The notes beneath the pieces were generated by a model. The model made no database searches. It had not been told where the DNA came from and worked only from the letters and a program-made list of their open reading frames with translations. From positions 1 to 30,301 of the forward strand of contig JAWBDT010000019.1 in the NCBI GenBank assembly GCA_038821645.1: a stretch of 30,301 bases of DNA. Reading direction: 5' to 3'. The stretch is from Ignisphaera sp. (GTDB lineage: Archaea > Thermoproteota > Thermoprotei_A > Sulfolobales > Ignisphaeraceae). Of the stretch, positions 4,712 to 30,301 are shown in pieces. How positions within the stretch are numbered: the first letter of the stretch is position 1; each line of letters begins with the position of its first letter. A program made the translations under genes and the position numbers.

Positions 4712-5599
4712 TTGTCTATGGTTGATGCATATATGGTGTTTACTGATCTAGGTGATGTTTTGGAGAAGCTCAAGAAAATGAATGTAGATGTCTATACAAA
4801 GTTTATGCGTCTTGTTAATTGGTTTAGATCTATAGATGGAAAGGTTATGGTTATGTTCTCTGGTGGTGTTGATAGTTCTGTTGTTCTATCTACTGCTACA
4901 ACTGTTCTCGGTACAAGTAGAGTTGTTGCTGTTACTTTCTCTATGCCTATTGTTGATGAAGAAGATCTTTATTGGTCTAGTGAGATCGCTAAATCTCTAG
5001 GTGTTGAAAGAATAGTTATTGAGGTAGATATTCTTTCTGAGAAAGAGTTTGTTTCAAATCCTGTAGACAGATGCTATGTATGTAAGAGGAAGATGGTTAA
5101 GAAATTGAACGAGTATATAGATCTTCTGGATATAGATGTGGTTATCGATGGAACAAATGCATCTGATCTACATACATATAGACCTGGATATAGAGCTTTG
5201 AGAGAGTATGGTGTTAGAAGTCCATTAGCAGAAATCGGTATAACGAAAGAAGATTCTAGAGAAATTGCTAAAGCTTTCAATCTCCCTAACTGGAGTAGAG
5301 CTTCTTCGAGTTGTCTAGCTACAAGAATACCGTATGGTTCTCCAATAACTCTAGAAAAGATTGTGAGGATAGCTAAAGCAGAAAGAATAATTAAGGATCT
5401 AACAGGTTTATCTCTGGTTAGAGTCAGGGATCATGGAAATATAGCTAGGATAGAAGTTGATAGAAACGAGAGAAGGAAGTTTTTTAGCGAAGAGCTTATG
5501 GATAGAGTGGCTAGAGAGCTAAATAGGCTTGGTTATAGATATGTAACACTAGATCTCAATGGCTATGGGTCTGGAAGCTTCGATACATTAACTAGCTAA
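4712..5599 (+). CDS. larE: LarE-family ATP-dependent sulfur transferase
   Basis: PP-loop SGGVDS, NP.DRCYVCK, DGTNASD..YRPG, CLATRIPYG, VRVRDHG. Likely start TTG 4760 after GGTGA. Confidence 0.9.
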   Translation: MSMVDAYMVFTDLGDVLEKLKKMNVDVYTKFMRLVNWFRSIDGKVMVMFSGGVDSSVVLSTATTVLGTSRVVAVTFSMPIVDEEDLYWSSEIAKSLGVERIVIEVDILSEKEFVSNPVDRCYVCKRKMVKKLNEYIDLLDIDVVIDGTNASDLHTYRPGYRALREYGVRSPLAEIGITKEDSREIAKAFNLPNWSRASSSCLATRIPYGSPITLEKIVRIAKAERIIKDLTGLSLVRVRDHGNIARIEVDRNERRKFFSEELMDRVARELNRLGYRYVTLDLNGYGSGSFDTLTS

Positions 5600-5684: not shown

Positions 5685-6725
5685 CTATCTACGCCATTTT
5701 TCCCAAACTCTATAGAGTTCATCTCTTACGTATAGTGTAGCTATCTTCTCTATAGATCCGTTCTCTTTATGGATAATAACGTAACTATCTAGAGCATCTA
5801 CAACTTTACCTATAACTGTTGCTCTTATCCCTAAGCTATTCAACAGGTTTAAAGCTTCATCAACTCTATCACTAGAGACTACAGCTATTAATGTACCTGA
5901 GCTTATCAGTCTTAGTGGATCTATCTTAAGAGCACTAGCTATAGCCATAGTCTCTTCAGCTATAGGTATCAATTCTTCCCAAATCTCTATAGTCTTATTA
6001 GATGCATACGCTATCTCTATTAAGCCTTCAAGCAATCCTCCTTCAGTAGGATCATGCATCGAAGATACATAGCCTGCTTCAGCTAGAGCTAGAGCTTCTC
6101 TAACAACACTTATATCCTTAATGAATCTGCTTCCTCTTTCAATAATATCGCTAGAAACGCCAAGCTTAATCAAGATATCTCTAAAGTCTGTAGACAGGAT
6201 AGCTGTACCCTCTATAGCTATAGTCTTGGTTACAATAACAACATCGCCTACTCTAGCTCCTCTTGTTGAAATATATCTATTCTTATCTCCAATACCTATA
6301 GCAGTCATAGATATAAGCACTCTATCTAGATCTGGAGTATATTCAGAATGTCCACCAACAATAGATACTTCTAACTCTTTAGCAGCTTCATCTATACTCT
6401 TGGTTATAGAATCTATAACTGATTCATCTATATCTCTAGGTAGAAAGAGTACAGGAAGAAGCCATCTAGGTTTAACACCTCTAACAGCAATATCGTTACA
6501 TGCTATATGGACAGCAAGCCACCCAATATTCTCTACAGCACCAGTTATAGGATCAACATGCATCACCAAAATTTTCCCATTACCAATGTCTATTATAGCT
6601 GCATCTTCACCTATAGAAGGACCAATTATAACTGAAGAGTCTCTAATACCTGTTCTACTCAATATATATCTTGTTAATAGTTCTGGAGGTAGTTTACCGC
6701 TCAACAAGATCACCATAAATTTCAT
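5685..6725 (-). CDS. AIR synthase-related protein (PurM/HypE/ThiL superfamily)
   Basis: GKLP N-terminus, GEDAA, DPITG, NDIA, VGGHSE, MHDPTEGG, ISSGTL. Likely start TTG 6704. Confidence 0.88.
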   Translation of the reverse strand: MKFMVILLSGKLPPELLTRYILSRTGIRDSSVIIGPSIGEDAAIIDIGNGKILVMHVDPITGAVENIGWLAVHIACNDIAVRGVKPRWLLPVLFLPRDIDESVIDSITKSIDEAAKELEVSIVGGHSEYTPDLDRVLISMTAIGIGDKNRYISTRGARVGDVVIVTKTIAIEGTAILSTDFRDILIKLGVSSDIIERGSRFIKDISVVREALALAEAGYVSSMHDPTEGGLLEGLIEIAYASNKTIEIWEELIPIAEETMAIASALKIDPLRLISSGTLIAVVSSDRVDEALNLLNSLGIRATVIGKVVDALDSYVIIHKENGSIEKIATLYVRDELYRVWEKWRR

Positions 6726-9895: not shown

Positions 9896-10981
9896 ATTTC
9901 TAGCGAATTTTTCGTTGGTAGATATAAAGATCTAGATACCATCATTAAGATAATCAAAAAGGTTGTTAATGGTGCTAGAGTCTTTGGATATAGAAGTGTT
10001 GATGGAGATATTGTTTGGGGTGAGATAAATGGTGTAGATGATCTTCCTCTAAATGTTTCTGATATTCAGAAACCAGGCTTCTATAGACTATCTAGAGGTG
10101 GTAGATTTAGGCATAGTTTTTTATCACCAAAGATATATCTCCATCCACCTGAACAAGTAATTTCAATTGTATTACCGAACTATGAATCTATAGATAGTGA
10201 TGTTGTTGATGTAGATAGAGTTGTATTGTTTGGTATTAAGTCTTGCGATCTAAAGTCTATCATGATTCTAGACTCTATTCTAGGTCTAAATAAACATCCT
10301 ATCTATACTAGAAGAAGAAGCTCTATAGAGTGTATTGTTGTTGAAGAGTGTCTAGAGCCTGGAGAAACATGTTTCTGTGGTGCTCTTGATGCAGGTCCTG
10401 ATGTTCATCGAGGTTTCGATATAGCTTATGCTAGACTTGATGAAGACGTTGTTCTGTTTAAGCATGGTAGCAATACTGGTAGAGAGATTATCTATAGAGC
10501 TAATCTAGAGAAAGCTGATAAAGATACCGTCTCTATATATCGAGAACTTATAGAAAAAGCTAGGAGGTCTACAGAAGCTCGTATACCCAGGATTAACGAA
10601 GTAAATGAAAAACTAAAGAAATCTATAAGCGATACAGAGCTATGGAGCAGATTAGCATCTAGGTGTATTGGATGTGGAAACTGTAACTATGTGTGTCCAA
10701 CTTGTTTCTGTATCGAGATAGAGGATCAAGTTTCAGAAAGATTTAGCAAAAGAGTAGCCAAATGGATTGGATGTTTAACGTATACCTATGGCCAAGTTGC
10801 TGGAGGTCATTTTAGAATCCACCTCTATACAAGGTATAGACATTTTGTGCTACATAAATTCATTTTCTATCCTATGCAGATAAATAGTATAGGATGTGTT
10901 GGATGTGGTAGATGTGTTACTTGGTGTCCCCTAGGAATAGATATAAGGAATACACTTAGAAAGGTTGCTGAATATGGATAG
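9896..10981 (+). CDS. Group 3b [NiFe]-hydrogenase/sulfhydrogenase beta subunit (4Fe-4S dicluster)
   Basis: CIGCGNCNYVCPTCFC and CVGCGRCVTWCP. Frame is open from 9890 and the part upstream of the ORF-track start (10226) encodes family-like Q.PG.YRL and SPK..L.PP. Confidence 0.88.
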   Translation: MSSEFFVGRYKDLDTIIKIIKKVVNGARVFGYRSVDGDIVWGEINGVDDLPLNVSDIQKPGFYRLSRGGRFRHSFLSPKIYLHPPEQVISIVLPNYESIDSDVVDVDRVVLFGIKSCDLKSIMILDSILGLNKHPIYTRRRSSIECIVVEECLEPGETCFCGALDAGPDVHRGFDIAYARLDEDVVLFKHGSNTGREIIYRANLEKADKDTVSIYRELIEKARRSTEARIPRINEVNEKLKKSISDTELWSRLASRCIGCGNCNYVCPTCFCIEIEDQVSERFSKRVAKWIGCLTYTYGQVAGGHFRIHLYTRYRHFVLHKFIFYPMQINSIGCVGCGRCVTWCPLGIDIRNTLRKVAEYG

Positions 10982-11825
10982 AGAGGGTATAGAGAAACAA
11001 AACATATTCACAGTTAAGAGAGCTATGGTTGTTAATGAAGTTGAAGAAGCACCTAATGTAAAGACGCTTACCCTAAAGATCGACAATGACTATAATGCAT
11101 CGCCAGGTCAATTCAATATGCTCTATGTTTATGGTTTAGGAGAAGTACCGATATCTATAGCTAGTCTCCCTACATCTATAGGTAGATCTATAGCTATTGA
11201 ACATACTATCAAAAGTGTTGGAGCTATAACGAAAGCTGTTGTATATAAAGTTAGTGTAGGTTCTATTGTAGGGATTAGAGGTCCTTATGGGAGAGGATGG
11301 CCTTTGGATGAGGCAGAAGATAGGGATCTGGTTATCATTGGCGGAGGTATCGGTGTAGCTCCTCTAAGACCTGTTGTAAAATATCTAGAGAAATTTAGAG
11401 AGAGATTCGGTAGAATCAATATACTGTTTGGTGCTAGATCTCCTAGAGATATCCTCTACAAATATGAACTAGATTCCTATAGATCTATACCGAACACAAA
11501 GCTTATGCTATCTATTGATACTTATTCAAGTGATTGGAGGCATCATGTTGGATTTGTTACTGATCTAATAGACTATATAGATATCGATGTACGTAACTCT
11601 ATAGCCTTTATATGTGGACCCGAGGTTATGATTAGAACAAGTATTAGAAAACTTTTGGATAGAGGATTTCGAAAAGATATGGTTTTTCTGTCTCTAGAGA
11701 GAAGGATGAGGTGTGGTGTAGGTGTTTGTGGTACATGTCAATTTGGTCACTACTTTATATGTAGAAACGGTCCTGTCTTTAGCTATAGTGATATAGAGGA
11801 CTATATATGGGTAGAAGGGATATAG
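10965..11825 (+). CDS. Group 3b hydrogenase gamma subunit (FAD/NAD(P)-binding, 2Fe-2S)
   Basis: PGQFNML, GEVPISI, RGPYGRGW, GGGIGVAP, CGPEVM, MRCGVGVCGTC..C. Likely start ATG 10974. Confidence 0.92.
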   Translation: MLNMDREGIEKQNIFTVKRAMVVNEVEEAPNVKTLTLKIDNDYNASPGQFNMLYVYGLGEVPISIASLPTSIGRSIAIEHTIKSVGAITKAVVYKVSVGSIVGIRGPYGRGWPLDEAEDRDLVIIGGGIGVAPLRPVVKYLEKFRERFGRINILFGARSPRDILYKYELDSYRSIPNTKLMLSIDTYSSDWRHHVGFVTDLIDYIDIDVRNSIAFICGPEVMIRTSIRKLLDRGFRKDMVFLSLERRMRCGVGVCGTCQFGHYFICRNGPVFSYSDIEDYIWVEGI

Positions 11826-11826
11826 A

Positions 11827-12594
11827 ATGTATGGTATAGCTATAGTTAAAGCAACTTCTTGTTCTGGCTGTATAAATGAACTCATATACTCTCTAACATC
11901 TGATCTCGATATGATCAAGACATACAGAATAGATTTCTTTCTAGAGCTTGTAGATAGAGAGACTATTGATGAAGTAGATATACTGTTTGTAGAAGGCTCT
12001 ATATCTAGTGAAGAACAAGAGAAACTATTGATCGATTTGAGAAAGAAAGCAAGAATTGTTGTAGCTCTAGGTACATGTGCATTAATGGGTGGTATACAGA
12101 GCCTTAGATCTGGAAGCAGTATTGATGAGGTTAAGAGGTGTGTATATCCAGAACCCCATCTGGTAGATGTCTATGGTGATGTGAAACCTGTGGATCAAGT
12201 TATACATATAGATTTCTTTCTCCCCGGATGTCCTGTAAATAGTGATGCTGTTACGTCTTTCCTTAGGAAGTTCTCTCTAGGTGGTCTGCCTATACATATA
12301 TATGAAAGTGTTTGTGGTGAATGTAAAAGAAGGAATATATCGTGTGTAATGGTTTCAAAAGGTATAGCTTGTTTAGGACCTGTAACAGTTAATGGATGTG
12401 GAGCTCTATGTCCATCGTTTAACCGTGGATGTTATGGCTGTTACGGTATAAAGAGCTACGATATAGATGAACACAACTTTAGCGAGTTTATTAAGGTGTT
12501 GCTGGATAAAGGTATGGATAAAGATAGCGTCTCTACATTAGTTAAGGGATACAGCTTCAAGCTGTATAAAAAGCTTGTAGGTGGTGATGTATAG
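11827..12594 (+). CDS. Group 3b hydrogenase delta (small) subunit
   Basis: SCSGC, VEGS, GTCA..GG, PGCP, CGEC..C..CLGP..GCGALCP...CYGCYG. Confidence 0.93.
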   Translation: MYGIAIVKATSCSGCINELIYSLTSDLDMIKTYRIDFFLELVDRETIDEVDILFVEGSISSEEQEKLLIDLRKKARIVVALGTCALMGGIQSLRSGSSIDEVKRCVYPEPHLVDVYGDVKPVDQVIHIDFFLPGCPVNSDAVTSFLRKFSLGGLPIHIYESVCGECKRRNISCVMVSKGIACLGPVTVNGCGALCPSFNRGCYGCYGIKSYDIDEHNFSEFIKVLLDKGMDKDSVSTLVKGYSFKLYKKLVGGDV

Positions 12595-13880
12595 AAAGGG
12601 TTTTGACTAGAGTTGAAGGAGAGGGAGAGATAGTGATTATCGATAGAGAAGGTAGTGTTGATTCTGTTGTATACAGAATTTCTGAAAGCCCTAGATTCTT
12701 TGAGTACATTATTAGAGGTAGAGATATATGGAGTGCTATCGATATTGTTAGCAGAATATGTGGATTATGTGGTGTTTCTTATGTATATACAGCATCAAAA
12801 GCTTTCGAAAAATGTCTAGGTATAGATGTAGATGAAGAAATTGAAAAAATTAGGGTTGCTCTACATCTAGCTGAAAGAGTTAAGAGCCACATGATACATC
12901 TATTCTATCTAAATCTACCAGACCTCGTGTATACAAGATCGTCTATAGAGTTCATCGATAGGAATCCAGAGATAGCTAAAGATGCTTTAAGAGTTATAGC
13001 ATGGTCTAGAAAAGCTATGGAGATATTTGGCGGAAGATTCCATAACGTCGTGAACATAAGGATTGGCGGTATCTATAGAGCACCAGAGAGAAATGATGTA
13101 GAGAAACTCTATAGAGAATTTAGTGAAGTTATAGAGAGTTTCACAAGGTTTGCAGAATTCTGTTTAAGTTTAAGAACTGTTCCAAAGTATCAGCATAAAC
13201 TTTCTGTAGCATCTATATACAGTAAAGAGTATCCACATACAGGTGACCATATCTCTCTTAACGGAACAATCTATAGTGTAAGCAAATTCTATAGAGATAT
13301 CTCTATAGGTATTCAGAAAAGATACTCAAACGCTCTACACTATAGGATAAAAGGTATTGAAAGCTATATAGTTGGACCTATAGCTAGATTTAATCAGTTC
13401 TATAGCTATCTGTCGAAAACAGTTAGAGAGCTTATTGAGCTATATGGATGGAGACAACCTCTAGAGAGTATATTCCAGGGATTTGTGGCACGTATTGCTG
13501 AAACATATGAAGCATTACTATATCTAGAAGAGTTCTTCAACAACTATAGGTATATCCATATACATAATGAGAGATACAGAGGTAGAGAATCTATAGATGT
13601 TTATGAATGTGAAGCTGCTATAGAAGCTCCTAGAGGTATTCTCTACCACAAATATAGGATTAACCAAGGCGGAAGAATAGAGTCATGCGATATAGTTACA
13701 CCTACAGCTCAAAATCTAGCTGCAATGGAGGATATAGCTTCAGAAAGACTTAGAGGAAGAAAGATAGATGATGAAGAAACAGTATCGATGGCTAGGAAGA
13801 TAGCTGTAGCATTTGATCCATGTATCTCATGCTCAGTACACATTATACCGATAAAGATACATAGAGCTTCAACTAAATAG
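12591..13880 (+). CDS. Group 3b hydrogenase alpha (large, Ni-Fe) subunit
   Basis: TRVEG, L1 RICGLC, EAPRG, L2 DPCISCSVH plus a 12-aa C-terminal extension. Start is ATA 12591 or TTG 12603. Confidence 0.95.
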   Translation: MERVLTRVEGEGEIVIIDREGSVDSVVYRISESPRFFEYIIRGRDIWSAIDIVSRICGLCGVSYVYTASKAFEKCLGIDVDEEIEKIRVALHLAERVKSHMIHLFYLNLPDLVYTRSSIEFIDRNPEIAKDALRVIAWSRKAMEIFGGRFHNVVNIRIGGIYRAPERNDVEKLYREFSEVIESFTRFAEFCLSLRTVPKYQHKLSVASIYSKEYPHTGDHISLNGTIYSVSKFYRDISIGIQKRYSNALHYRIKGIESYIVGPIARFNQFYSYLSKTVRELIELYGWRQPLESIFQGFVARIAETYEALLYLEEFFNNYRYIHIHNERYRGRESIDVYECEAAIEAPRGILYHKYRINQGGRIESCDIVTPTAQNLAAMEDIASERLRGRKIDDEETVSMARKIAVAFDPCISCSVHIIPIKIHRASTK

Positions 13881-21904: not shown

Positions 21905-24157
21905 TTATTTCTTACCAAGAGTTAATATAAACCATCCAACTATAGCACCTACTACCAATAGAACAGCCCAAACTACTGCAACAGTCGCCCAGTCTGCTTC
22001 TCTTTCCTTAATAGTTATAGTAGAGTACACAGTTCTCTCAACTTGTTGAACCACTGTAACCGTAACAGTTACTGTAGCTCCAGGGACTACTGGTGTTGTT
22101 GGAGTTGGTGTTGGTGTAGGAGTAGTAGGTGTAGGTGTTGTTGGAGTTGGTGTTGGTGTAGGAGTAGTAGGTGTAGGTGTTGTTGGAGTTGGTGTTGGTG
22201 TAGGAGTAGTAGGTGTAGGTGTTGGTTTACCTGATTCTATTCTGAAGCTTTTTCCTTCGTATATTGACCTTCTTAGATATTCGTTATACCTATTCATAGA
22301 TATGAGGGCTCCTCCTTCTTCTACTGATGCTAGCCACCATGGTTTTTCAATTGGTTTTCCTGTTGGTGTTAAGAAGAATAACACAGGTGCGCTACCCCAC
22401 CATGATGGTAGCCACCATGGTCTCTGTGCATTTGGCCATCCATCCCAGTACTTATCGTTGTATACCCAGAAGGATGGTGTATAGAATAATGGTATTGATG
22501 GTAGATCTTCAAATAGTATCTCTTGGATAGCATAAGCCAGTTCTTTTTCACGCTCTGGATCTATTAGCGATCTCATCATTTCTTCAAATAATGCATTTAA
22601 TCTATCGTTTGTATAGCCTATCCATCTAGCCATGTTGCCCCATGGAGAGTACAGAGCATTTCCATAAGAGTTTCTAATATGACCTACCTCATATGCTCCA
22701 GCACTCCAACACAATGTTGCATCGAATCTACCATTAGAGAAGCTTTCCCACCAAACTCTATAGTCAACAGCTTGTACTGCTACCGCTATACCTATGTCCT
22801 TTAACGCATCAGCTACAAGTGAAGCTATGGTGTTCTCGAGAACAGCTCCTGCAGAAACTAGTATCGTGAATCTCAAGGGTGTTCCATCTGGAAGCTCTCT
22901 AACACCATCTCTATCTCTATCAACGATTCCTGCAGCATCAAGTATGCTTCTTGCTTTAGCTAGATCTTGCTTAAGTAGACAGTCTGGTGTTCCCCAATAC
23001 TTTTGACACGCTTCACGATTCACATAATCTTTGTATACACCTTCAGCAACAAATCCAACAACAGGTGCCTGTTGTACTAATCCTAATAGACCATACTCAG
23101 TAATATCTTCCCACGGTATAGCCCAGGCAATAGCTCTTCTTACCTCGATTCTCTGGAAGATAGGTAGGTTGAGGTTGAGATATAGCCAGAAGCTGGCTCC
23201 AGGTATAAAGTATGGCTGTACCTCAGACCATGTCTTTATACCATGTCTTGTTTTAAGTTCTTCGACATTAGGTATGAATACTCCTGCTCCACCACCAATA
23301 ATACCTAAGGCATCTATATCGCCTCTGATTAAAGCTGATACCGCTACTGTAGTATCTTTATAGTATATGAACATTAGGTATTTGGCTGCAGGAAGACCAA
23401 AGATATCCTTACCCCACCAATTATCTATTCTCTCGTATATAACTTGAGTAGCATCTGCGAAATAAAGTTTGTAGGGTCCAGCAACAACCTGTCTAGCTGG
23501 GTCGTCATTTCTCCACTGAACTCTCATACCTTCGCCCATTTCATCAATAAGAGGTTTGAAGATATGTACCGGTACTGGTCTTATGAATAATATACAGCCT
23601 ATGGGACCTCCAAGCCAGTCCATAATGATTTCCTCTCTTGGTGGAGGCTCTTCACCTGGTGTTCTCGCTATATAGTACTTCAGTGTTTTGTCATCGATTA
23701 CCTCATAGTTGTATATACACCAATCACCCCATAGACCAGCACCTACTTGTCTACTCAACTGATAACCTTCTACTATGTCTCTACTGGTTATAGGTGTTCC
23801 ATCACTCCAACGAGCTTCATTCCTTATGTGTATGGTTATGGTAATTTCATCTCCATTGAACTCTATTCTATCTATAAGGAATAAGAGCCAATCCTGAGTT
23901 AATACATTCTGCATAGCTACAGATGGGTATAGAATATGCCAAGCACCCCACTCCATACCACCAGCACCTCCAGGAGCAAAGGGATTCCAGTTTAGTGTTG
24001 GTGCCCCTATATTTCCTATAATCAAAGTCTCTTCACGTTTTGGTGTTTGTGCATATATGCGTGTATTCGCTATAGCAAGGATTGTGCTTAATAGCAACAT
24101 TATGATAAAGAGATGTACTAAGACTATGTGTTTGGTTTTTAAGATCAAAGACTTCAC
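21905..24157 (-). CDS. ABC substrate-binding protein, OppA/DppA family 5 (likely oligosaccharide-binding)
   Basis: NWNPF, ARWSDGTPITSRD, GPYKL, VRRAIA, DLPSIPL; signal peptide, PT linker, C-terminal TM anchor. Likely start TTG 24148. Confidence 0.92.
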   Translation of the reverse strand: MKSLILKTKHIVLVHLFIIMLLLSTILAIANTRIYAQTPKREETLIIGNIGAPTLNWNPFAPGGAGGMEWGAWHILYPSVAMQNVLTQDWLLFLIDRIEFNGDEITITIHIRNEARWSDGTPITSRDIVEGYQLSRQVGAGLWGDWCIYNYEVIDDKTLKYYIARTPGEEPPPREEIIMDWLGGPIGCILFIRPVPVHIFKPLIDEMGEGMRVQWRNDDPARQVVAGPYKLYFADATQVIYERIDNWWGKDIFGLPAAKYLMFIYYKDTTVAVSALIRGDIDALGIIGGGAGVFIPNVEELKTRHGIKTWSEVQPYFIPGASFWLYLNLNLPIFQRIEVRRAIAWAIPWEDITEYGLLGLVQQAPVVGFVAEGVYKDYVNREACQKYWGTPDCLLKQDLAKARSILDAAGIVDRDRDGVRELPDGTPLRFTILVSAGAVLENTIASLVADALKDIGIAVAVQAVDYRVWWESFSNGRFDATLCWSAGAYEVGHIRNSYGNALYSPWGNMARWIGYTNDRLNALFEEMMRSLIDPEREKELAYAIQEILFEDLPSIPLFYTPSFWVYNDKYWDGWPNAQRPWWLPSWWGSAPVLFFLTPTGKPIEKPWWLASVEEGGALISMNRYNEYLRRSIYEGKSFRIESGKPTPTPTTPTPTPTPTTPTPTTPTPTPTPTTPTPTTPTPTPTPTTPVVPGATVTVTVTVVQQVERTVYSTITIKEREADWATVAVVWAVLLVVGAIVGWFILTLGKK
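22092..22224. repeat. Perfect 42-bp tandem repeat x3 plus 7 nt, encoding a Pro/Thr linker
   Basis: ggtgttgttggagttggtgttggtgtaggagtagtaggtgta at 22092, 22134 and 22176. Confidence 0.95.
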
Positions 24158-25911: not shown

Positions 25912-26496
25912 TTAGCCAATGAGTCTAGAGACTATGTATGGTGTTATGAAGGATTCTATGAGGCTTGCAACTAAGAGTAATAGAACAATTATCAGGATTA
26001 TTTTTGGAAGAATCTTCAATGTTTTAGCTATATCTTCTCTATTCCTTTTAAATACATATTTCCAGAAGTCTATACCGAGTTTAGTTCCAAAAGCTGAAGC
26101 CATGAGTATTGCTGGAAGTTCGAAAACACCGTGGGGAGCTATAGCTACAAAGCCTAGGAGTGGTGAGCCTCCAGTCATAATAACCAACATTATCACCATA
26201 CCTACAATAAACCCATTGGCAAAAACTATTACACCAGGAATAAATACAAGTAGACCTGAGGCTATAGATATGGATGCAACTAGTAGATTCCTTCTGAATA
26301 TATAGAAAGCTGTATCAATACTATAGAATTCTATAGGGATATCTCCGTAAGCTTGCTTAATCATATCATTTACTGTTTGAAGCTCGTTTGGTGCAAACAT
26401 CACGAGATATAGTGTAGCAAGAGAGCCTAGAAACCAACTCACTACGAATATAATGACCATGACTAGGAAAAACATCTTCAGAGACACACCATTCAC
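25912..26496 (-). CDS. SpoIIM/DUF95-family membrane protein
   Basis: IF..N, NG..VG, PHGVFELPA, A.LIESFITP. Confidence 0.88.
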   Translation of the reverse strand: MNGVSLKMFFLVMVIIFVVSWFLGSLATLYLVMFAPNELQTVNDMIKQAYGDIPIEFYSIDTAFYIFRRNLLVASISIASGLLVFIPGVIVFANGFIVGMVIMLVIMTGGSPLLGFVAIAPHGVFELPAILMASAFGTKLGIDFWKYVFKRNREDIAKTLKILPKIILIIVLLLLVASLIESFITPYIVSRLIG

Positions 26497-26676: not shown

Positions 26677-27447
26677 CTAATAATCATATATAGATCTACA
26701 TACAGATACCGTTCCTGCACCATCTTCAGCTGGAGTCTTTATTCTCTGACCTATAACATGTAGATCTCTTGACCTTAGTATCTCTCTCAAGACTTCTTTC
26801 CCCTGCATTTTCTCTGATCTCAAACAGTTTATCGGTATCTTGAACGCTATATCCAGTACTTCTCTATCTAGGAGCAGAGCTACAGCTTTTACATCTATAC
26901 ACTTTGCTATCTCTAGCTCTGGGTATCTACCATAAGCTAGTCTGTTAATGGTTTCCTCAAGCTCTTTTTCAACAAGTTTTAATAGAAAGCTATAGCCAGC
27001 AAAAACCTCATCTCCACCACTTCCTGTATAGATACATCTACATCCATCTTTTTTAGCTTCTCTAAGTACTGAATAGAAAACTATATCGTTTCTGATCTCT
27101 ATACATCCACCATCTCTATGCGAGTCAATTCTATCCCTACCTATACACCCAATAACACCACTCTTTAGATTATCGATATCTCCTTGATCTATATAAATGT
27201 ACTTAACATCTATATTGAAGAACTTAGCTATATGATTCACATATACAAGATCTTTCGGAAGACCTTGTCTATATACAGCTGTATAGCCTCTAGGCTTATA
27301 GCCAGCCGATACGCTTGCCAAAAGCACTAGCGATGTATCTATCCCACCGCTTAAAGCAATACAATCACATCTATACTCCTCTACAGATTCCACTAGTACA
27401 TTAAACAGCTTCTCTGCGTATATATTGCAGGGCATTGGGATCCTCAT
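26677..27447 (-). CDS. Asparagine synthetase C-terminal-like ATP pyrophosphatase (no glutaminase domain)
   Basis: LSGGIDTS, TGSGGDEVFAGY, GKEVLR, R.KTP..G. Confidence 0.82.
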   Translation of the reverse strand: MRIPMPCNIYAEKLFNVLVESVEEYRCDCIALSGGIDTSLVLLASVSAGYKPRGYTAVYRQGLPKDLVYVNHIAKFFNIDVKYIYIDQGDIDNLKSGVIGCIGRDRIDSHRDGGCIEIRNDIVFYSVLREAKKDGCRCIYTGSGGDEVFAGYSFLLKLVEKELEETINRLAYGRYPELEIAKCIDVKAVALLLDREVLDIAFKIPINCLRSEKMQGKEVLREILRSRDLHVIGQRIKTPAEDGAGTVSVCRSIYDY

Positions 27448-28076
27448 TAGATCAACCTCAAGATAATGTAGTTGCCATAGCTTTCAGACCCTATAGTCTT
27501 GTATCCGAGGATAGATCTGTGAAGTGGTCCTGATAAAACTACTGTATGGTATTCGCCTCTCTCTCCTAGAGGATCTATACCGATTTTTAGCGCTTTTTCT
27601 ACAAATAGATCGACATTACCTCTACCTAGTTCTACACCAAGCCATTCACCTAAATTCTCTATACATCCTATTATGAGTGGCTTCACACCATCATAGAGCT
27701 CTCTATAGAGAAGGTCGAGTGGATCCAAACCCCATAGAGGTTCAACAAGTGTTGCTCCTACTTCTCTAACGAGTTTCTCCATATAGTTTAGATGCTCATC
27801 GATATACACATCTCCAGCAACTACTACATCTACCTGGAGCTTCTTAAGCAGATCAACTGTCTCTATAAATTCTCTACCTCTAGTAAGCTTTACCACAGTA
27901 ACCGGTATTTCGGCTAAAAGAAGTGTCTCAATAGATTTACCTATGTTAAGTAGATGAGGGCTTGGTCTTGGAAACTCGTACACAAGTACTATACCTAGAT
28001 CCACTTTTCTACCGTATCGATAAACAGCGTAGTAAGAATCCTTACCTCCAGATAGAAAAGCTACATACATATTCAC
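27447..28076 (-). CDS. DUF71/Dph6 (diphthine-ammonia ligase)-like ATP-binding protein
   Basis: SGGKDS, GD...EH, EPLW, DP.GE.GEYHTVV..GP. Confidence 0.85.
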   Translation of the reverse strand: MNMYVAFLSGGKDSYYAVYRYGRKVDLGIVLVYEFPRPSPHLLNIGKSIETLLLAEIPVTVVKLTRGREFIETVDLLKKLQVDVVVAGDVYIDEHLNYMEKLVREVGATLVEPLWGLDPLDLLYRELYDGVKPLIIGCIENLGEWLGVELGRGNVDLFVEKALKIGIDPLGERGEYHTVVLSGPLHRSILGYKTIGSESYGNYIILRLI

Positions 28077-28768
28077 ACACCAAGCTTTTGGAGAAGCTTT
28101 AAGGGATAGGTTACGTAGAGATTCTTAAGGTATGTCTTGTGGTATGTTGTTCTAGGAGGAAGAGTTTCACCTCTTGTAGCAATTCTATAGATATCTTTTG
28201 GCTCTAGTTTTGGCATCAATACGCATATATCTGAAGAAGAACACCTATCTATATCTATAGGAACCTTAGCCATATCGAGTAACGCGTTTGGAGAACCCAG
28301 TTCTTTAAACGCTAAATAAACATCAATTCTATCAATATTCAAAACCACCACTGTACCACCCACCTTAACCTTCATTTCATCGCTACCTCTCTTAGCCATA
28401 GACTCTAACTCTTCTACAGCCTTTACCACAGACCTATGGTCTATCAATCTACTTGACCCGATATACATCCATCCACCAACATCATCTACATCTAAACCGT
28501 AGTCAGCTATATAAGCTGGAACCACTTTTACACCAAGAGACTTTAGAGCATTAAGTCTGTGGTGACCATCGATAACTATGAGCCTGTTCTTTTCAACAAT
28601 AATAGGCTTCCTTAAAGCTCCATCAATACCTATCGAGTCTAGTACTCTAGAGCTATGTATGATATCGGTATCTTCGTGAGGAACAACATCATTTATGTAG
28701 AGTAGAACTGGATTAGCGAGATGATTATTACATGGATTCTCTCGAACTCTGCACCTCTTTATCGGCAT
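28073..28768 (-). CDS. ParB/Srx-fold protein resembling free serine kinase SerK
   Basis: VPHE, KPII, IDGHHR, DY......V..W, C-terminal GE.LPPRTTYH. Confidence 0.75.
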   Translation of the reverse strand: MPIKRCRVRENPCNNHLANPVLLYINDVVPHEDTDIIHSSRVLDSIGIDGALRKPIIVEKNRLIVIDGHHRLNALKSLGVKVVPAYIADYGLDVDDVGGWMYIGSSRLIDHRSVVKAVEELESMAKRGSDEMKVKVGGTVVVLNIDRIDVYLAFKELGSPNALLDMAKVPIDIDRCSSSDICVLMPKLEPKDIYRIATRGETLPPRTTYHKTYLKNLYVTYPLKLLQKLGV

Positions 28769-28803: not shown

Positions 28804-29778
28804 CTATGTATTAGCTAAGTATATAAGGTGATGTATAGGTAGCACCAGAAGATGTAGAAAAACTACGTAGACTATAGATACATAGATAGAGAGTTCTACA
28901 GCTCTTAGTACATCGCTGTGTGTTGGTAAATGGAATTCTCTACCTATAGTATAGCTCTCTATCTTCTCAAGCTTAACACCTAAACATCCAGCTGTAGCCG
29001 CCATAGGGTTTCCAGCATTTATGCTTTCTGTAAATTTTCTATCCCTTAAATATATATACCAACCTCTTCGAATAGAACCACCAACAGTAGAGCATAAAGC
29101 TAGCGTAATTAGCGCGGTTAATCTTGCTGGAACAAAATTGAGGATTGTATCAACTTTTGCTGAAAACCATCCTATATCCTTAAACATAGGCTCTCTGTAA
29201 CCTAGTGCAGAATCCATTGTATTCGCTAACCTCTGGATTAGTGCTCCTATAGAGCCTAGAAAGAGATAGAAGAATAGTGGTGATGTAAATCCATCTACAA
29301 GACTTTCAAACAGAGACTCTATAGCGGCTGACGCTATGTGACCTTCATAAAGATTTTCAACACTCCTTCTAACAATATTTGAGATAGTTTTTCGAGCATG
29401 CACTATATCTCTATTCTTGAGATGTAGATAAACAGCTTTAACATAGTCTAGAAGCAGTTTTAGTGATAGTGAGACCTTCAAGAGGTATATAGAGAATAGT
29501 ATCCAGAGAACTCTATGTATAGAGTTAACCACATAGAGAACAAACATATATAGAGCTGTATGGATAAAGACTGTGGCAATCCATAGAGCTACACCCATCA
29601 ACCTGTTCTTCGGAAGTTTTTTGTAGAGAGTTATAGCAAACGTATAGGCTGTGTGTACGGGATGTATCTTGTACATTATTCCGCTGTGATATGGGTAGAG
29701 GAAATCCAGTATAAGAGCGCCTAAGAGGATTGAAGAGAACTCCACTATATCTCTAGGGAGAAGCCAGTCTAGATCCAT
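28804..29778 (-). CDS. cbiB: Adenosylcobinamide-phosphate synthase CbiB
   Basis: HPV, IVRR, AAIESLFESLVDG..SPLF, NTMDSALGY, G.FSAK.D.ILNFVPARL, S.NAG.PMA, LEK..Y. Start placed at ATG 29778 after GGTG. Confidence 0.92.
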   Translation of the reverse strand: MDLDWLLPRDIVEFSSILLGALILDFLYPYHSGIMYKIHPVHTAYTFAITLYKKLPKNRLMGVALWIATVFIHTALYMFVLYVVNSIHRVLWILFSIYLLKVSLSLKLLLDYVKAVYLHLKNRDIVHARKTISNIVRRSVENLYEGHIASAAIESLFESLVDGFTSPLFFYLFLGSIGALIQRLANTMDSALGYREPMFKDIGWFSAKVDTILNFVPARLTALITLALCSTVGGSIRRGWYIYLRDRKFTESINAGNPMAATAGCLGVKLEKIESYTIGREFHLPTHSDVLRAVELSIYVSIVYVVFLHLLVLPIHHLIYLANT

Positions 29779-30301
29779 AGATTCGCACCTACAGCATGTA
29801 TAGCCATAACCATTAGATAACATAGCTCGGATACAAAGCCCAGGACATCGCCATTAACGAAACCCAGAACCCTACTGGATAGCAGATGGGTAGATAGTAC
29901 GGCAATAGTGAAACCCACAGCCAGCAACATGGTTAATAATGGAGCTATCATGGGGTGTACAGAGAACATAAGGACTGTAGTTAAAGCAACTGCTATAGCT
30001 ATACCGAGAAGCACATCTATGTCTCTGACACTATGCTTAAACAACCTACCTATACCTTCTGGAGGTTCTCTACCTAGATAAGATAGCGTAGGCATGGAAA
30101 CTATAGACCACACTTCAGCAGAAATAATCAGAACTATCGATACCTCTAGCCTTGTCTTGATCAAGATGCTCAGTACCGATGAATATAGTCCTAACACTAA
30201 TAGCACGAATATCGCTATTGCGTAAGAACCTCTATACCTATCTTTAACAACTCTATACGCATCTACACCAAATCTATATGCCAAGACAGCTTCTGAGAAA
30301 T
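29769..30301 (-). CDS. cobS: Adenosylcobinamide-GDP ribazoletransferase CobS (5' end outside window)
   Basis: KD.Y.GSYA, G.G..F, G.VNGDVLG...E; frame stays open to the window edge. Confidence 0.88.
   Translation of the reverse strand, partial: FSEAVLAYRFGVDAYRVVKDRYRGSYAIAIFVLLVLGLYSSVLSILIKTRLEVSIVLIISAEVWSIVSMPTLSYLGREPPEGIGRLFKHSVRDIDVLLGIAIAVALTTVLMFSVHPMIAPLLTMLLAVGFTIAVLSTHLLSSRVLGFVNGDVLGFVSELCYLMVMAIHAVGANLWI

Follow-up and report, generated by a model that had tools for sequence, protein, structure and literature searches.

The window analysed here is the whole 30,301-bp contig C19 (GenBank JAWBDT010000019.1) of a 1.57-Mb draft genome of Ignisphaera sp., which is 97.8% complete and has about 36% G+C. 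On its minus strand lies a cobamide gene cluster with the order CobS, CbiB, a ParB/SerK-like open reading frame (ORF), a DUF71 gene, and an asparagine synthetase-like (Asn-synthetase-like) gene, and the last two of these, which encode two different PP-loop proteins and are called the pair below, are the subject of this study. The DUF71 PP-loop ATP pyrophosphatase of the TTX_0299 family is encoded by a GTG-start ORF of 209 aa (27447-28076, minus strand) with a likely start at ATG 28070, and the Asn-synthetase-like protein of 256 aa (26677-27447, minus strand) starts with ATG and consists of the AsnB synthetase (PP-loop) domain only. The overlap of the two genes at 27447, which was described in an initial annotation of this DNA, is confirmed, as the TAA stop codon and the ATG share one base (TAATG). 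The same annotation described an overlap between the DUF71 gene and the upstream ORF (GTGA, 4 nt, 28073-28076), which exists only with GTG 28076 as the start; the homologues align from ATG 28070, and this leaves a 2-nt gap instead of the 4-nt overlap. Whichever start is used, the DUF71 gene and the upstream ORF are tightly packed, and both genes of the pair are intact and tightly packed. The pair ends the cobamide operon, as had been suggested, because it is followed by a gap of 180 nt and then by a poorly conserved SpoIIM-like gene (25912-26496), the next one downstream, which is kept only in the closest relative.

Upstream of the pair the adenosylcobinamide-phosphate synthase CbiB (28804-29823, minus strand) gives 252.6 bits with PF03186 and 319.4 bits with NF002281 at a cut-off of 273, and the cobamide synthase CobS (29769-30301, minus strand) gives 54.5 bits with PF02654; only profile positions 80-206 are covered by the CobS fragment, whose 5' end is cut at 30301 since the window is an entire contig. 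The 231-aa ORF between CbiB and DUF71 (28073-28768, minus strand) had been called a kinase gene; it has weak N-terminal matches to the NCBIfam models SerK (41.8 bits) and SbnI (39.5 bits) and no match in Pfam. Its homologues sit between CbiB and DUF71 in six other loci (L042, L045, L047, L049, L050, and L054), and it may be regarded as a candidate threonine kinase feeding CobD. The N-terminus of the ORF also resembles ParB/Srx-type amino-acid kinases.

The two PP-loop proteins

The DUF71 protein possesses the Pfam domain PF01902 (93.3 bits, residues 5-200) and aligns to the solved Dph6-type protein PF0828/3rjz with an E value of 5.6e-21. With the NCBIfam model NF052347 (TTX_0299 family, cut-off 250) it scores 250.3 bits, or 249.7 in the genome scan, while the scores with the PAB0415 model of PF0295 orthologues (104.2 bits, cut-off 250) and with the archaeal Dph6 model TIGR03679 (67.6 bits, cut-off 197.3) stay below the limits of these families. 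The PP-loop SGGKDS is retained, with S7, G8, G9, K10, and D11 invariant in 21 sequences. At the site of the Dph6 motif EGGExE the protein carries ERGEYH, in which the catalytic Glu of Dph6 is changed to His; G-E-Y-H-T is invariant across the family, and the second position of the motif is variable (R, K, H, N, G, Q, or E). The signature ENGE[F/Y]H in place of the Dph6 motif EGGE/DxE is characteristic of the DUF71-B12 subgroup of DUF71/COG2102 (PF0295/PAB0415 type), defined by de Crecy-Lagard et al. in 2012 (PMC3541065), and the window protein agrees with it in having His at the E188 position. The association of a DUF71 subgroup with B12 genes, mentioned in the initial annotation, is this published one, for which a role like that of bacterial CbiZ in pseudo-B12 salvage was put forward in 2012 (PMC3541065). 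Two DUF71 homologues each are given for Ignisphaera aggregans, Pyrolobus, and Thermoproteus in Table S1 of that study (PMC3541065).

The genome analysed here likewise contains one DUF71 copy beside cbiB and other B12 genes and a separate Dph6 elsewhere, as is typical of the subgroup. The presence of a separate true Dph6 was the first thing to be checked according to the initial annotation, and such a paralogue is encoded at C14:26059-26730, with 239.5 bits for TIGR03679 (cut-off 197.3) and the motif EGGEAE; therefore the window DUF71 gene, judged by sequence, is not the Dph6 of this genome.

Fused forms of DUF71 were also considered. An apparent 435-aa fusion of the kinase-like ORF with DUF71 in genome G093 was rejected, as translation revealed a stop codon between them, and the only 3 longer proteins found all were AsnB(glutaminase+synthetase)-DUF71 fusions with the Dph6 motif and not the B12-type pair; this search is weak evidence of absence. 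In two clusters, L048 (G022:C1, the second cluster of genome G022, which carries the cluster twice) and L035/L055 (G224:C19), the tblastn matches to DUF71 are all split or partial and the gene seems degraded, with a full-length Asn-synthetase-like neighbour in both.

The Asn-synthetase-like protein matches PF00733 with 62.9 bits at residues 30-161. It contains no glutaminase domain, since its 256 residues align only to residues 230-460 of the 553 of AsnB, and therefore only free ammonia or another amine can serve as a nitrogen source. Its scores with the equivalog models are 48.7 bits for TIGR01536 (cut-off 267.1) and 37.7 bits for NF006949 (cut-off 499), far below both. The AlphaFold2 (AF2) model built with 32 orthologues, aligned at 42-94% identity, has a predicted local distance difference test score (pLDDT) of 91.6, and its best Foldseek match is the C-domain of E. 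coli AsnB (1ct9, TMq 0.76); in all, the model superposes on the AsnB C-domain, beta-lactam synthetase, carbapenam synthetase, and human ASNS with TMq of 0.68-0.76. The PP-loop SGGIDT is retained, and the residues aligned with D351, E352, and K449 of AsnB are kept and invariant in 32 sequences, while E348, D384, and R387 align with Ser, Pro (P176), and Glu (E179), respectively; the E. coli residue numbers were obtained by counting along the profile alignment and the roles of these residues were taken from their human equivalents. In human ASNS Asp-367, Glu-368, and Lys-466 are described as synthetase-site residues (PMC6748925). Because of these kept and replaced positions the adenylation machinery of the protein looks intact and a part of the aspartate pocket looks rebuilt.

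About eight cysteines are conserved in this family (C27, C29, C136, and C208 invariant; C7, C101, C138, and C183 in at least 90%), including C-x-C pairs at the N-terminal starts of neighbouring strands 1 and 4, and they are not kept in the second subfamily described below or in the Nitrososphaeria type. These cysteines might form structural disulfides or bind a metal; an iron-sulfur or sulfur-transfer function was considered and rejected, as in the model the C-x-C pairs appear to lie far from the PP-loop end and they are unconserved in related groups. Prediction of a complex between the DUF71 and Asn-synthetase-like proteins returned scores of 0.00 and 0.00, which speak neither for nor against binding.

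Salvage genes, neighbourhoods, and distribution

The initial annotation proposed a search for cbiA and cbiP, the genes that normally make the corrin amides, and in this 97.8% complete genome neither CbiP nor CbiA was found, the best matches being 24.7 bits for TIGR00313 (cut-off 310) and 18.4 bits for TIGR00379 (cut-off 261). These matches lie elsewhere in the genome, and the pair is not homologous to the CobB/CobQ families. Salvage genes outside the window are placed on two contigs: BtuF, BtuC, BtuD, CobT, and CbiZ fused to a CobZ-like phosphatase on C24, and a CobY gene on C23, cut at the contig start (C23:1-453). CobD was not found in the draft assembly, where only a HisC-like gene in the his operon (C17) was detected, and it probably lies in the assembly gap between C23 and the window, because the CobY gene is cut at the start of C23 and CobS at the end of the window. 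Judging from this gene content, the organism is a cobamide salvager. The known salvage steps found all have an enzyme or a candidate (CobD presumably in the gap; the adenosyltransferase was not searched for), and therefore the two ligases of the pair are extra. Full-length AsnB was not found in the genome, the best PF00733 match of which is the window gene itself.

The CbiZ-containing protein on C24 deserves a separate description. It is a CbiS-like fusion of CbiZ with a CobZ-like alpha-ribazole phosphatase (C24:1812-2906, locus L041), with 197.5 bits for NF038002 and 99 bits for TIGR03161, both below the cut-offs, and it ends the BtuF-BtuC-BtuD-CobT-CbiZ operon, which is located on another contig than the window.

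For the study of gene neighbourhoods, 301 genomes of Thermoprotei (the class of the window organism) were searched with the Asn-synthetase-like protein, and matches were obtained in 109 of them, 49 being strong (34-94% identity). DUF71 is directly adjacent in 24 of the 30 best loci, and three of the other six loci end within 300 nt of the gene. When 19 loci were extended to 20 kb, the gene or the pair was placed in clusters with CobT, CbiZ, CobS, and CbiB in 16, some of which also carry the kinase-like ORF and/or BtuFCD; in the five clusters that were annotated CobY and CobD are located between CbiZ and CobS. A further set of 46 named loci from archaeal metagenome-assembled genomes (Ignisphaera, Desulfurococcaceae, Pyrodictiaceae, Hyperthermus, and Zestosphaera; many contigs are short, and some loci come from the same assemblies as in the 301-genome sample) has DUF71 adjacent in 27 and another cobamide gene in 24. 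In 55 records of the pair, which include some assemblies counted twice, both genes always share the strand (55/55) and are at most 60 nt apart in 52, with DUF71 first in 32 and the Asn-synthetase-like gene first in 23. This arrangement is not due to chance, and that the genes stay neighbours although their order is reversed in part of the records speaks for functional coupling. Thus the survey of neighbourhoods called for in the initial annotation ties both genes to cobamide salvage clusters.

There is also a second, longer subfamily of Asn-synthetase-like proteins (27-33% identity, 314-347 aa), which is encoded directly after CbiB in complete clusters (G078, G077, and G044) and beside DUF71 in other genomes (G120, G149, G196, G017, G286, and G209). 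In a quick tree both subfamilies of Thermoprotei group together (support of 90 in the Shimodaira-Hasegawa-like approximate likelihood ratio test, SH-aLRT), apart from the 313-aa Nitrososphaeria type. These 313-aa proteins, the nearest outside group, were rejected as family members, being near B12 genes in none of 14 loci. A separate observation is that the tree of Asn-synthetase-like proteins (loci L011-L040) disagrees with the family labels of the genomes: genomes from the genus of the window organism are spread over three separate subclades in which other families also occur, which suggests lateral exchange of the cluster among hyperthermophiles.

The distribution of the pair was compared with that of the cobamide enzymes in the same 301 genomes, where TTX-type DUF71 was found in 86, CbiB in 159, CbiP in 57, CbiZ in 142, and CbiA in 52. 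DUF71 and the Asn-synthetase-like gene occur together in 79 genomes, and DUF71 occurs alone in 7. Among the 106 genomes with CbiB and without CbiP, 93 give an Asn-synthetase-like match, 74 possess DUF71, and 73 show both. In the 57 CbiP-bearing genomes DUF71 is absent and the Asn-synthetase-like gene is represented by 2 weak matches that are not beside B12 genes; the 53 of them with CbiB give the same picture (DUF71 0/53, weak unlinked Asn-synthetase-like matches 2/53). CbiA is limited to three genome families (f5, f14, and f18), in none of which DUF71 occurs. The pair is therefore complementary in distribution to CbiP/CbiA, which is what a stand-in for these two enzymes would show.

The pair is found only where CbiP is not found, and this holds also among the CbiZ-bearing genomes alone: those with CbiP contain DUF71 in 0/37 and the Asn-synthetase-like gene in 2/37 (weak matches not linked to B12 genes), and those without CbiP in 72/105 and 90/105, respectively, so that the distribution is not simply that of salvage genes. 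A direct example is the CbiP-bearing genome G280 of the window's own family, where the same CobT-CbiZ-CobY-CobD-CobS-CbiB operon stops at CbiB and the pair is absent. Regarding CbiP itself, it was observed with CbiZ, without CbiA, and (except in G248) with CbiB in G167, G248, G280, and G258, which are only 79-95% complete; CbiC was found in one of the five CbiP-bearing genomes without CbiA (G280) and CbiD in none, a sample too small and too incomplete for conclusions. Salvagers that do not synthesize the corrin ring may retain CbiP.

Possible corrinoid side-chain amidation and competing explanations

Both parent families, Dph6 and AsnB, convert a carboxylate into a carboxamide via an acyl-adenylate. 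This parent chemistry, the kept motifs, the location in salvage operons, and the absence of CbiA and CbiP together make corrinoid amidation with free ammonia the simplest reading of the pair. We therefore consider it possible, although short of probable, that the pair is an ATP- and ammonia-dependent system of corrinoid side-chain amidation which replaces CbiA/CbiP in salvagers. With the same reserve, hyperthermophilic archaea unable to make B12 may possess a second, evolutionarily independent corrin amidation system. It would consist of two PP-loop adenylating ligases, one derived from Dph6 and the other from the AsnB synthetase domain, and would rebuild the six primary amides on salvaged corrinoids which are partly or fully de-amidated.

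In this mechanism the PP-loop of each enzyme would serve to adenylate a free carboxylate on one of the acetate or propionate side chains at the periphery of a corrinoid that has been imported or processed by CbiZ. Free ammonia would then displace AMP to give the carboxamide, and the product would be a fully amidated intermediate at the level of cobyric acid, to be finished by CbiB, CobY, and CobS. Two enzymes might correspond to two classes of sites, much as CbiA amidates positions a and c and CbiP positions b, d, e, and g. The free carboxylates may originate from heat or acid deamidation of environmental corrinoids, from off-target hydrolysis by CbiZ, or from precursors that are taken up incompletely amidated. 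The substrates would be neither elongation factor 2 (EF-2) nor aspartate, because a separate Dph6 exists, the catalytic Glu is changed to His, and D384 and R387 are replaced by P176 and E179. An ammonia-dependent (re)amidation of salvaged or heat-deamidated corrinoids had been proposed in the initial annotation; the genomic checks (Dph6, CbiA/CbiP, neighbourhoods) came out in its favour, while the reaction, the corrinoid substrate, ammonia as nucleophile, the division of sites, the origin of the free carboxylates, and the heat rationale are what we infer from sequence and genomic context.

Several observations weigh against this proposal. The Asn-synthetase-like gene occurs without DUF71 in 30 of 109 genomes, and because of this and of the two clusters in which a degraded-looking DUF71 accompanies an intact partner, the two genes are not strictly interdependent. 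Neither gene of the pair is carried by 12 of the 106 genomes with CbiB and without CbiP, and 3 of the 19 extended loci, as well as several loci of the second subfamily, lie outside B12 clusters. As the sampled genomes are related, fewer independent events stand behind the pattern than the counts given above would imply. Of the 37 genomes in which CbiZ and CbiP coexist, only 9 come from families other than the Sulfolobaceae-like f5, and the complementarity with CbiP could simply reflect the lifestyle of salvagers versus producers. The window residue at the position of the catalytic Glu-348 of AsnB is Ser. Finally, heat damage does not account for the DUF71-B12 pattern published for mesophilic bacteria (PMC3541065).

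Four other explanations were considered, and two of them keep the corrinoid as substrate. The pair, or the Asn-synthetase-like enzyme alone, might help CbiB by adenylating the f-propionate of cobyric acid released by CbiZ, and the adenylate would let aminopropanol phosphate or threonine phosphate attach by an amide bond. The Asn-synthetase-like gene stands immediately after CbiB in many lineages (L118, L120, L124, L125, L064, and L066), in the window the pair is separated from CbiB by a kinase-like ORF, enzymes of the AsnB family using amines other than ammonia exist, with beta-lactam and carbapenam synthetases among the top structural matches, and to our knowledge the ATP use of CbiB has never been reconstituted in vitro. 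However, CbiB evidently works without the pair in the 53 genomes where it occurs together with CbiP (apart from the 2 weak unlinked matches), the otherwise identical operon of G280 ends at CbiB, and two different ligases would be superfluous for one ligation step, and such a helper function is regarded as unlikely. The proposal of 2012, according to which DUF71-B12 plays a role like that of bacterial CbiZ in cleaving or remodelling complete cobamides such as pseudo-B12 and the Asn-synthetase-like protein would be an accessory, appears improbable to a like degree. It was based on a strict anti-correlation of DUF71-B12 with CbiZ in bacteria and on clustering with btuFCD and cbiB, archaeal CbiZ was said not to cleave pseudo-B12, and the window DUF71 shares the GE[FY]H signature described there (PMC3541065). 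On the other hand, PP-loop enzymes are ligases, and amide hydrolysis reverses their known chemistry, which was also the point of a reviewer in that study (PMC3541065); moreover, 72 of the 105 CbiZ-bearing genomes without CbiP also carry DUF71, and a remodelling role gives no reason why all 37 genomes that combine CbiZ with CbiP should be without it.

The remaining two explanations move the reaction away from the corrin ring. The substrate might be a small molecule from which the nucleotide loop is built, such as threonine or serine phosphate from the neighbouring kinase-like protein, nicotinate, or a lower-ligand intermediate. Such a substrate agrees with the order of the kinase-like ORF, DUF71, and the Asn-synthetase-like gene in the window and in the same six loci named above for this ORF, with the neighbours of a lone DUF71 in G078, which encode a 2-hydroxyacid dehydrogenase and a class-V aminotransferase, and with the PP-loop amidases NAD and NMN synthetases as distant structural matches. 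Despite this, we rate it as very unlikely, given that the related clusters examined contain genes for the kinase candidate, CobD, CobT, and CobY, that a new carboxamide is not required in any known loop intermediate, and that the kinase-like gene is absent from many clusters which retain the pair. The lowest probability is assigned to genes unrelated to corrinoids, which would encode either a minimal asparagine synthetase that depends on ammonia or some other amide synthetase with a housekeeping role. The lack of a detectable full-length AsnB in the genome would fit such a function, as would a distant pair in G209 beside an AsnC-type regulator and a gene like those of class-II aminoacyl-tRNA synthetases, and the nearest outside relatives from Nitrososphaeria with no B12 genes near any of their 14 loci; but the conserved location inside cobamide clusters is shared by the two subfamilies and does not depend on which gene comes first, the occurrence of the genes follows that of CbiB without CbiP, and the replaced D384 and R387 positions, together with the TIGR01536 score of 48.7 against 267, point away from asparagine synthesis.

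Three other regions of the contig were also noted. A LarE-type ATP-dependent sacrificial sulfur transferase (4712-5599, plus strand; TIGR00268, 264 bits), a PP-loop enzyme unrelated to the pair, adjoins an AIR-synthase-related protein (5685-6725, minus strand). Four genes at 10226-13880 (plus strand) encode a 4Fe-4S dicluster protein, an NAD-binding/DHODB Fe-S protein, a NiFe-hydrogenase small-subunit-like protein (Oxidored_q6), and a NiFeSe hydrogenase large subunit, and this cluster looks like a sulfhydrogenase-type soluble hydrogenase. A family-5 solute-binding protein of 750 aa (21905-24157, minus strand) possesses a long Pro/Thr repeat (PTPTPTTPTPTT...) before its C-terminal membrane anchor, and the repeat lifts the local G+C to 0.42.

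Significance and comparison with known systems

In a table of 2016 DUF71-B12 is listed as a family of unknown function in B12 salvage (PMC5041015); no functional study of DUF71-B12, COG2102, or PF0295 since 2013 was present among the matches listed, and no papers turned up in literature searches for TTX_0299, PAB0415, corrinoid deamidation, or cobalamin monocarboxylic acid. The present analysis adds a conserved partner enzyme and an assayable hypothesis to this gap in B12 salvage, which has stood unsolved since 2012, together with a distribution rule, by which the pair occurs where CbiB and CbiZ are found without CbiP/CbiA and is not found where CbiP is present. As far as the literature searches show, both the Asn-synthetase-like partner and the complementarity with CbiP/CbiA appear to be new. 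If corrinoid amidation by the pair is true, it would represent a substitute for both classical corrin amidotransferases without homology to them, would assign a function to the DUF71-B12 family, and would provide a repair step for a damaged cofactor; it would also bear on the survival of B12 auxotrophs at 90 °C or above, predicting which corrinoids are usable, and would affect the annotation of genes that are now called "asparagine synthase," "QueC," or "diphthamide synthase."

The closest known system is the DUF71-B12 subgroup itself, which the window protein resembles in the PF01902 fold, the SGGKDS loop, the His motif GEYH, the presence as a second copy beside Dph6, and the clustering with cbiB and salvage genes. 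It differs in belonging to the crenarchaeal TTX_0299 NCBIfam family and not to PAB0415, in the variable second motif position, which is N in the published subgroup, in its co-occurrence with CbiZ, which the published bacterial group excludes, and in its pairing with an Asn-synthetase-like gene, which in a B12 context is absent from the main text of that study (PMC3541065). There asparagine synthetase is discussed only in the context of Dph6 and ammonia supply and in the reviewers' comments (PMC3541065). The AsnB-DUF71 fusions of the Methanohalophilus type also join Asn-synthetase and DUF71 domains in one unit; however, they keep the glutaminase domain and the Dph6 motif EGGExE and were interpreted as Dph6 with its own ammonia supply (PMC3541065).

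With Dph6 the window DUF71 shares the fold, the PP-loop, and presumably the conversion of carboxylate to carboxamide, while it differs in the altered EGGExE motif and the TIGR03679 score below the cut-off. Similarly, the partner protein resembles AsnB, beta-lactam synthetase, and carbapenam synthetase in the fold, the PP-loop, and the kept equivalents of D351, E352, and K449, and it differs from AsnB in having neither the N-terminal glutaminase domain nor the last ~90 residues, in S, P, and E at the positions of E348, D384, and R387, and in the about eight cysteines conserved in its family. The proposed analogues, CbiA and CbiP, belong to the CobQ/MinD type of P-loop enzymes; they carry a glutamine amidotransferase domain, and their reactions proceed via phosphorylated intermediates. 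The likeness of the pair to them would lie in the ATP-dependent amidation of corrin side chains by two enzymes and in the complementary distribution; there is no homology, as the proteins of the pair have PP-loop folds, would form an adenylate, and contain no glutaminase.

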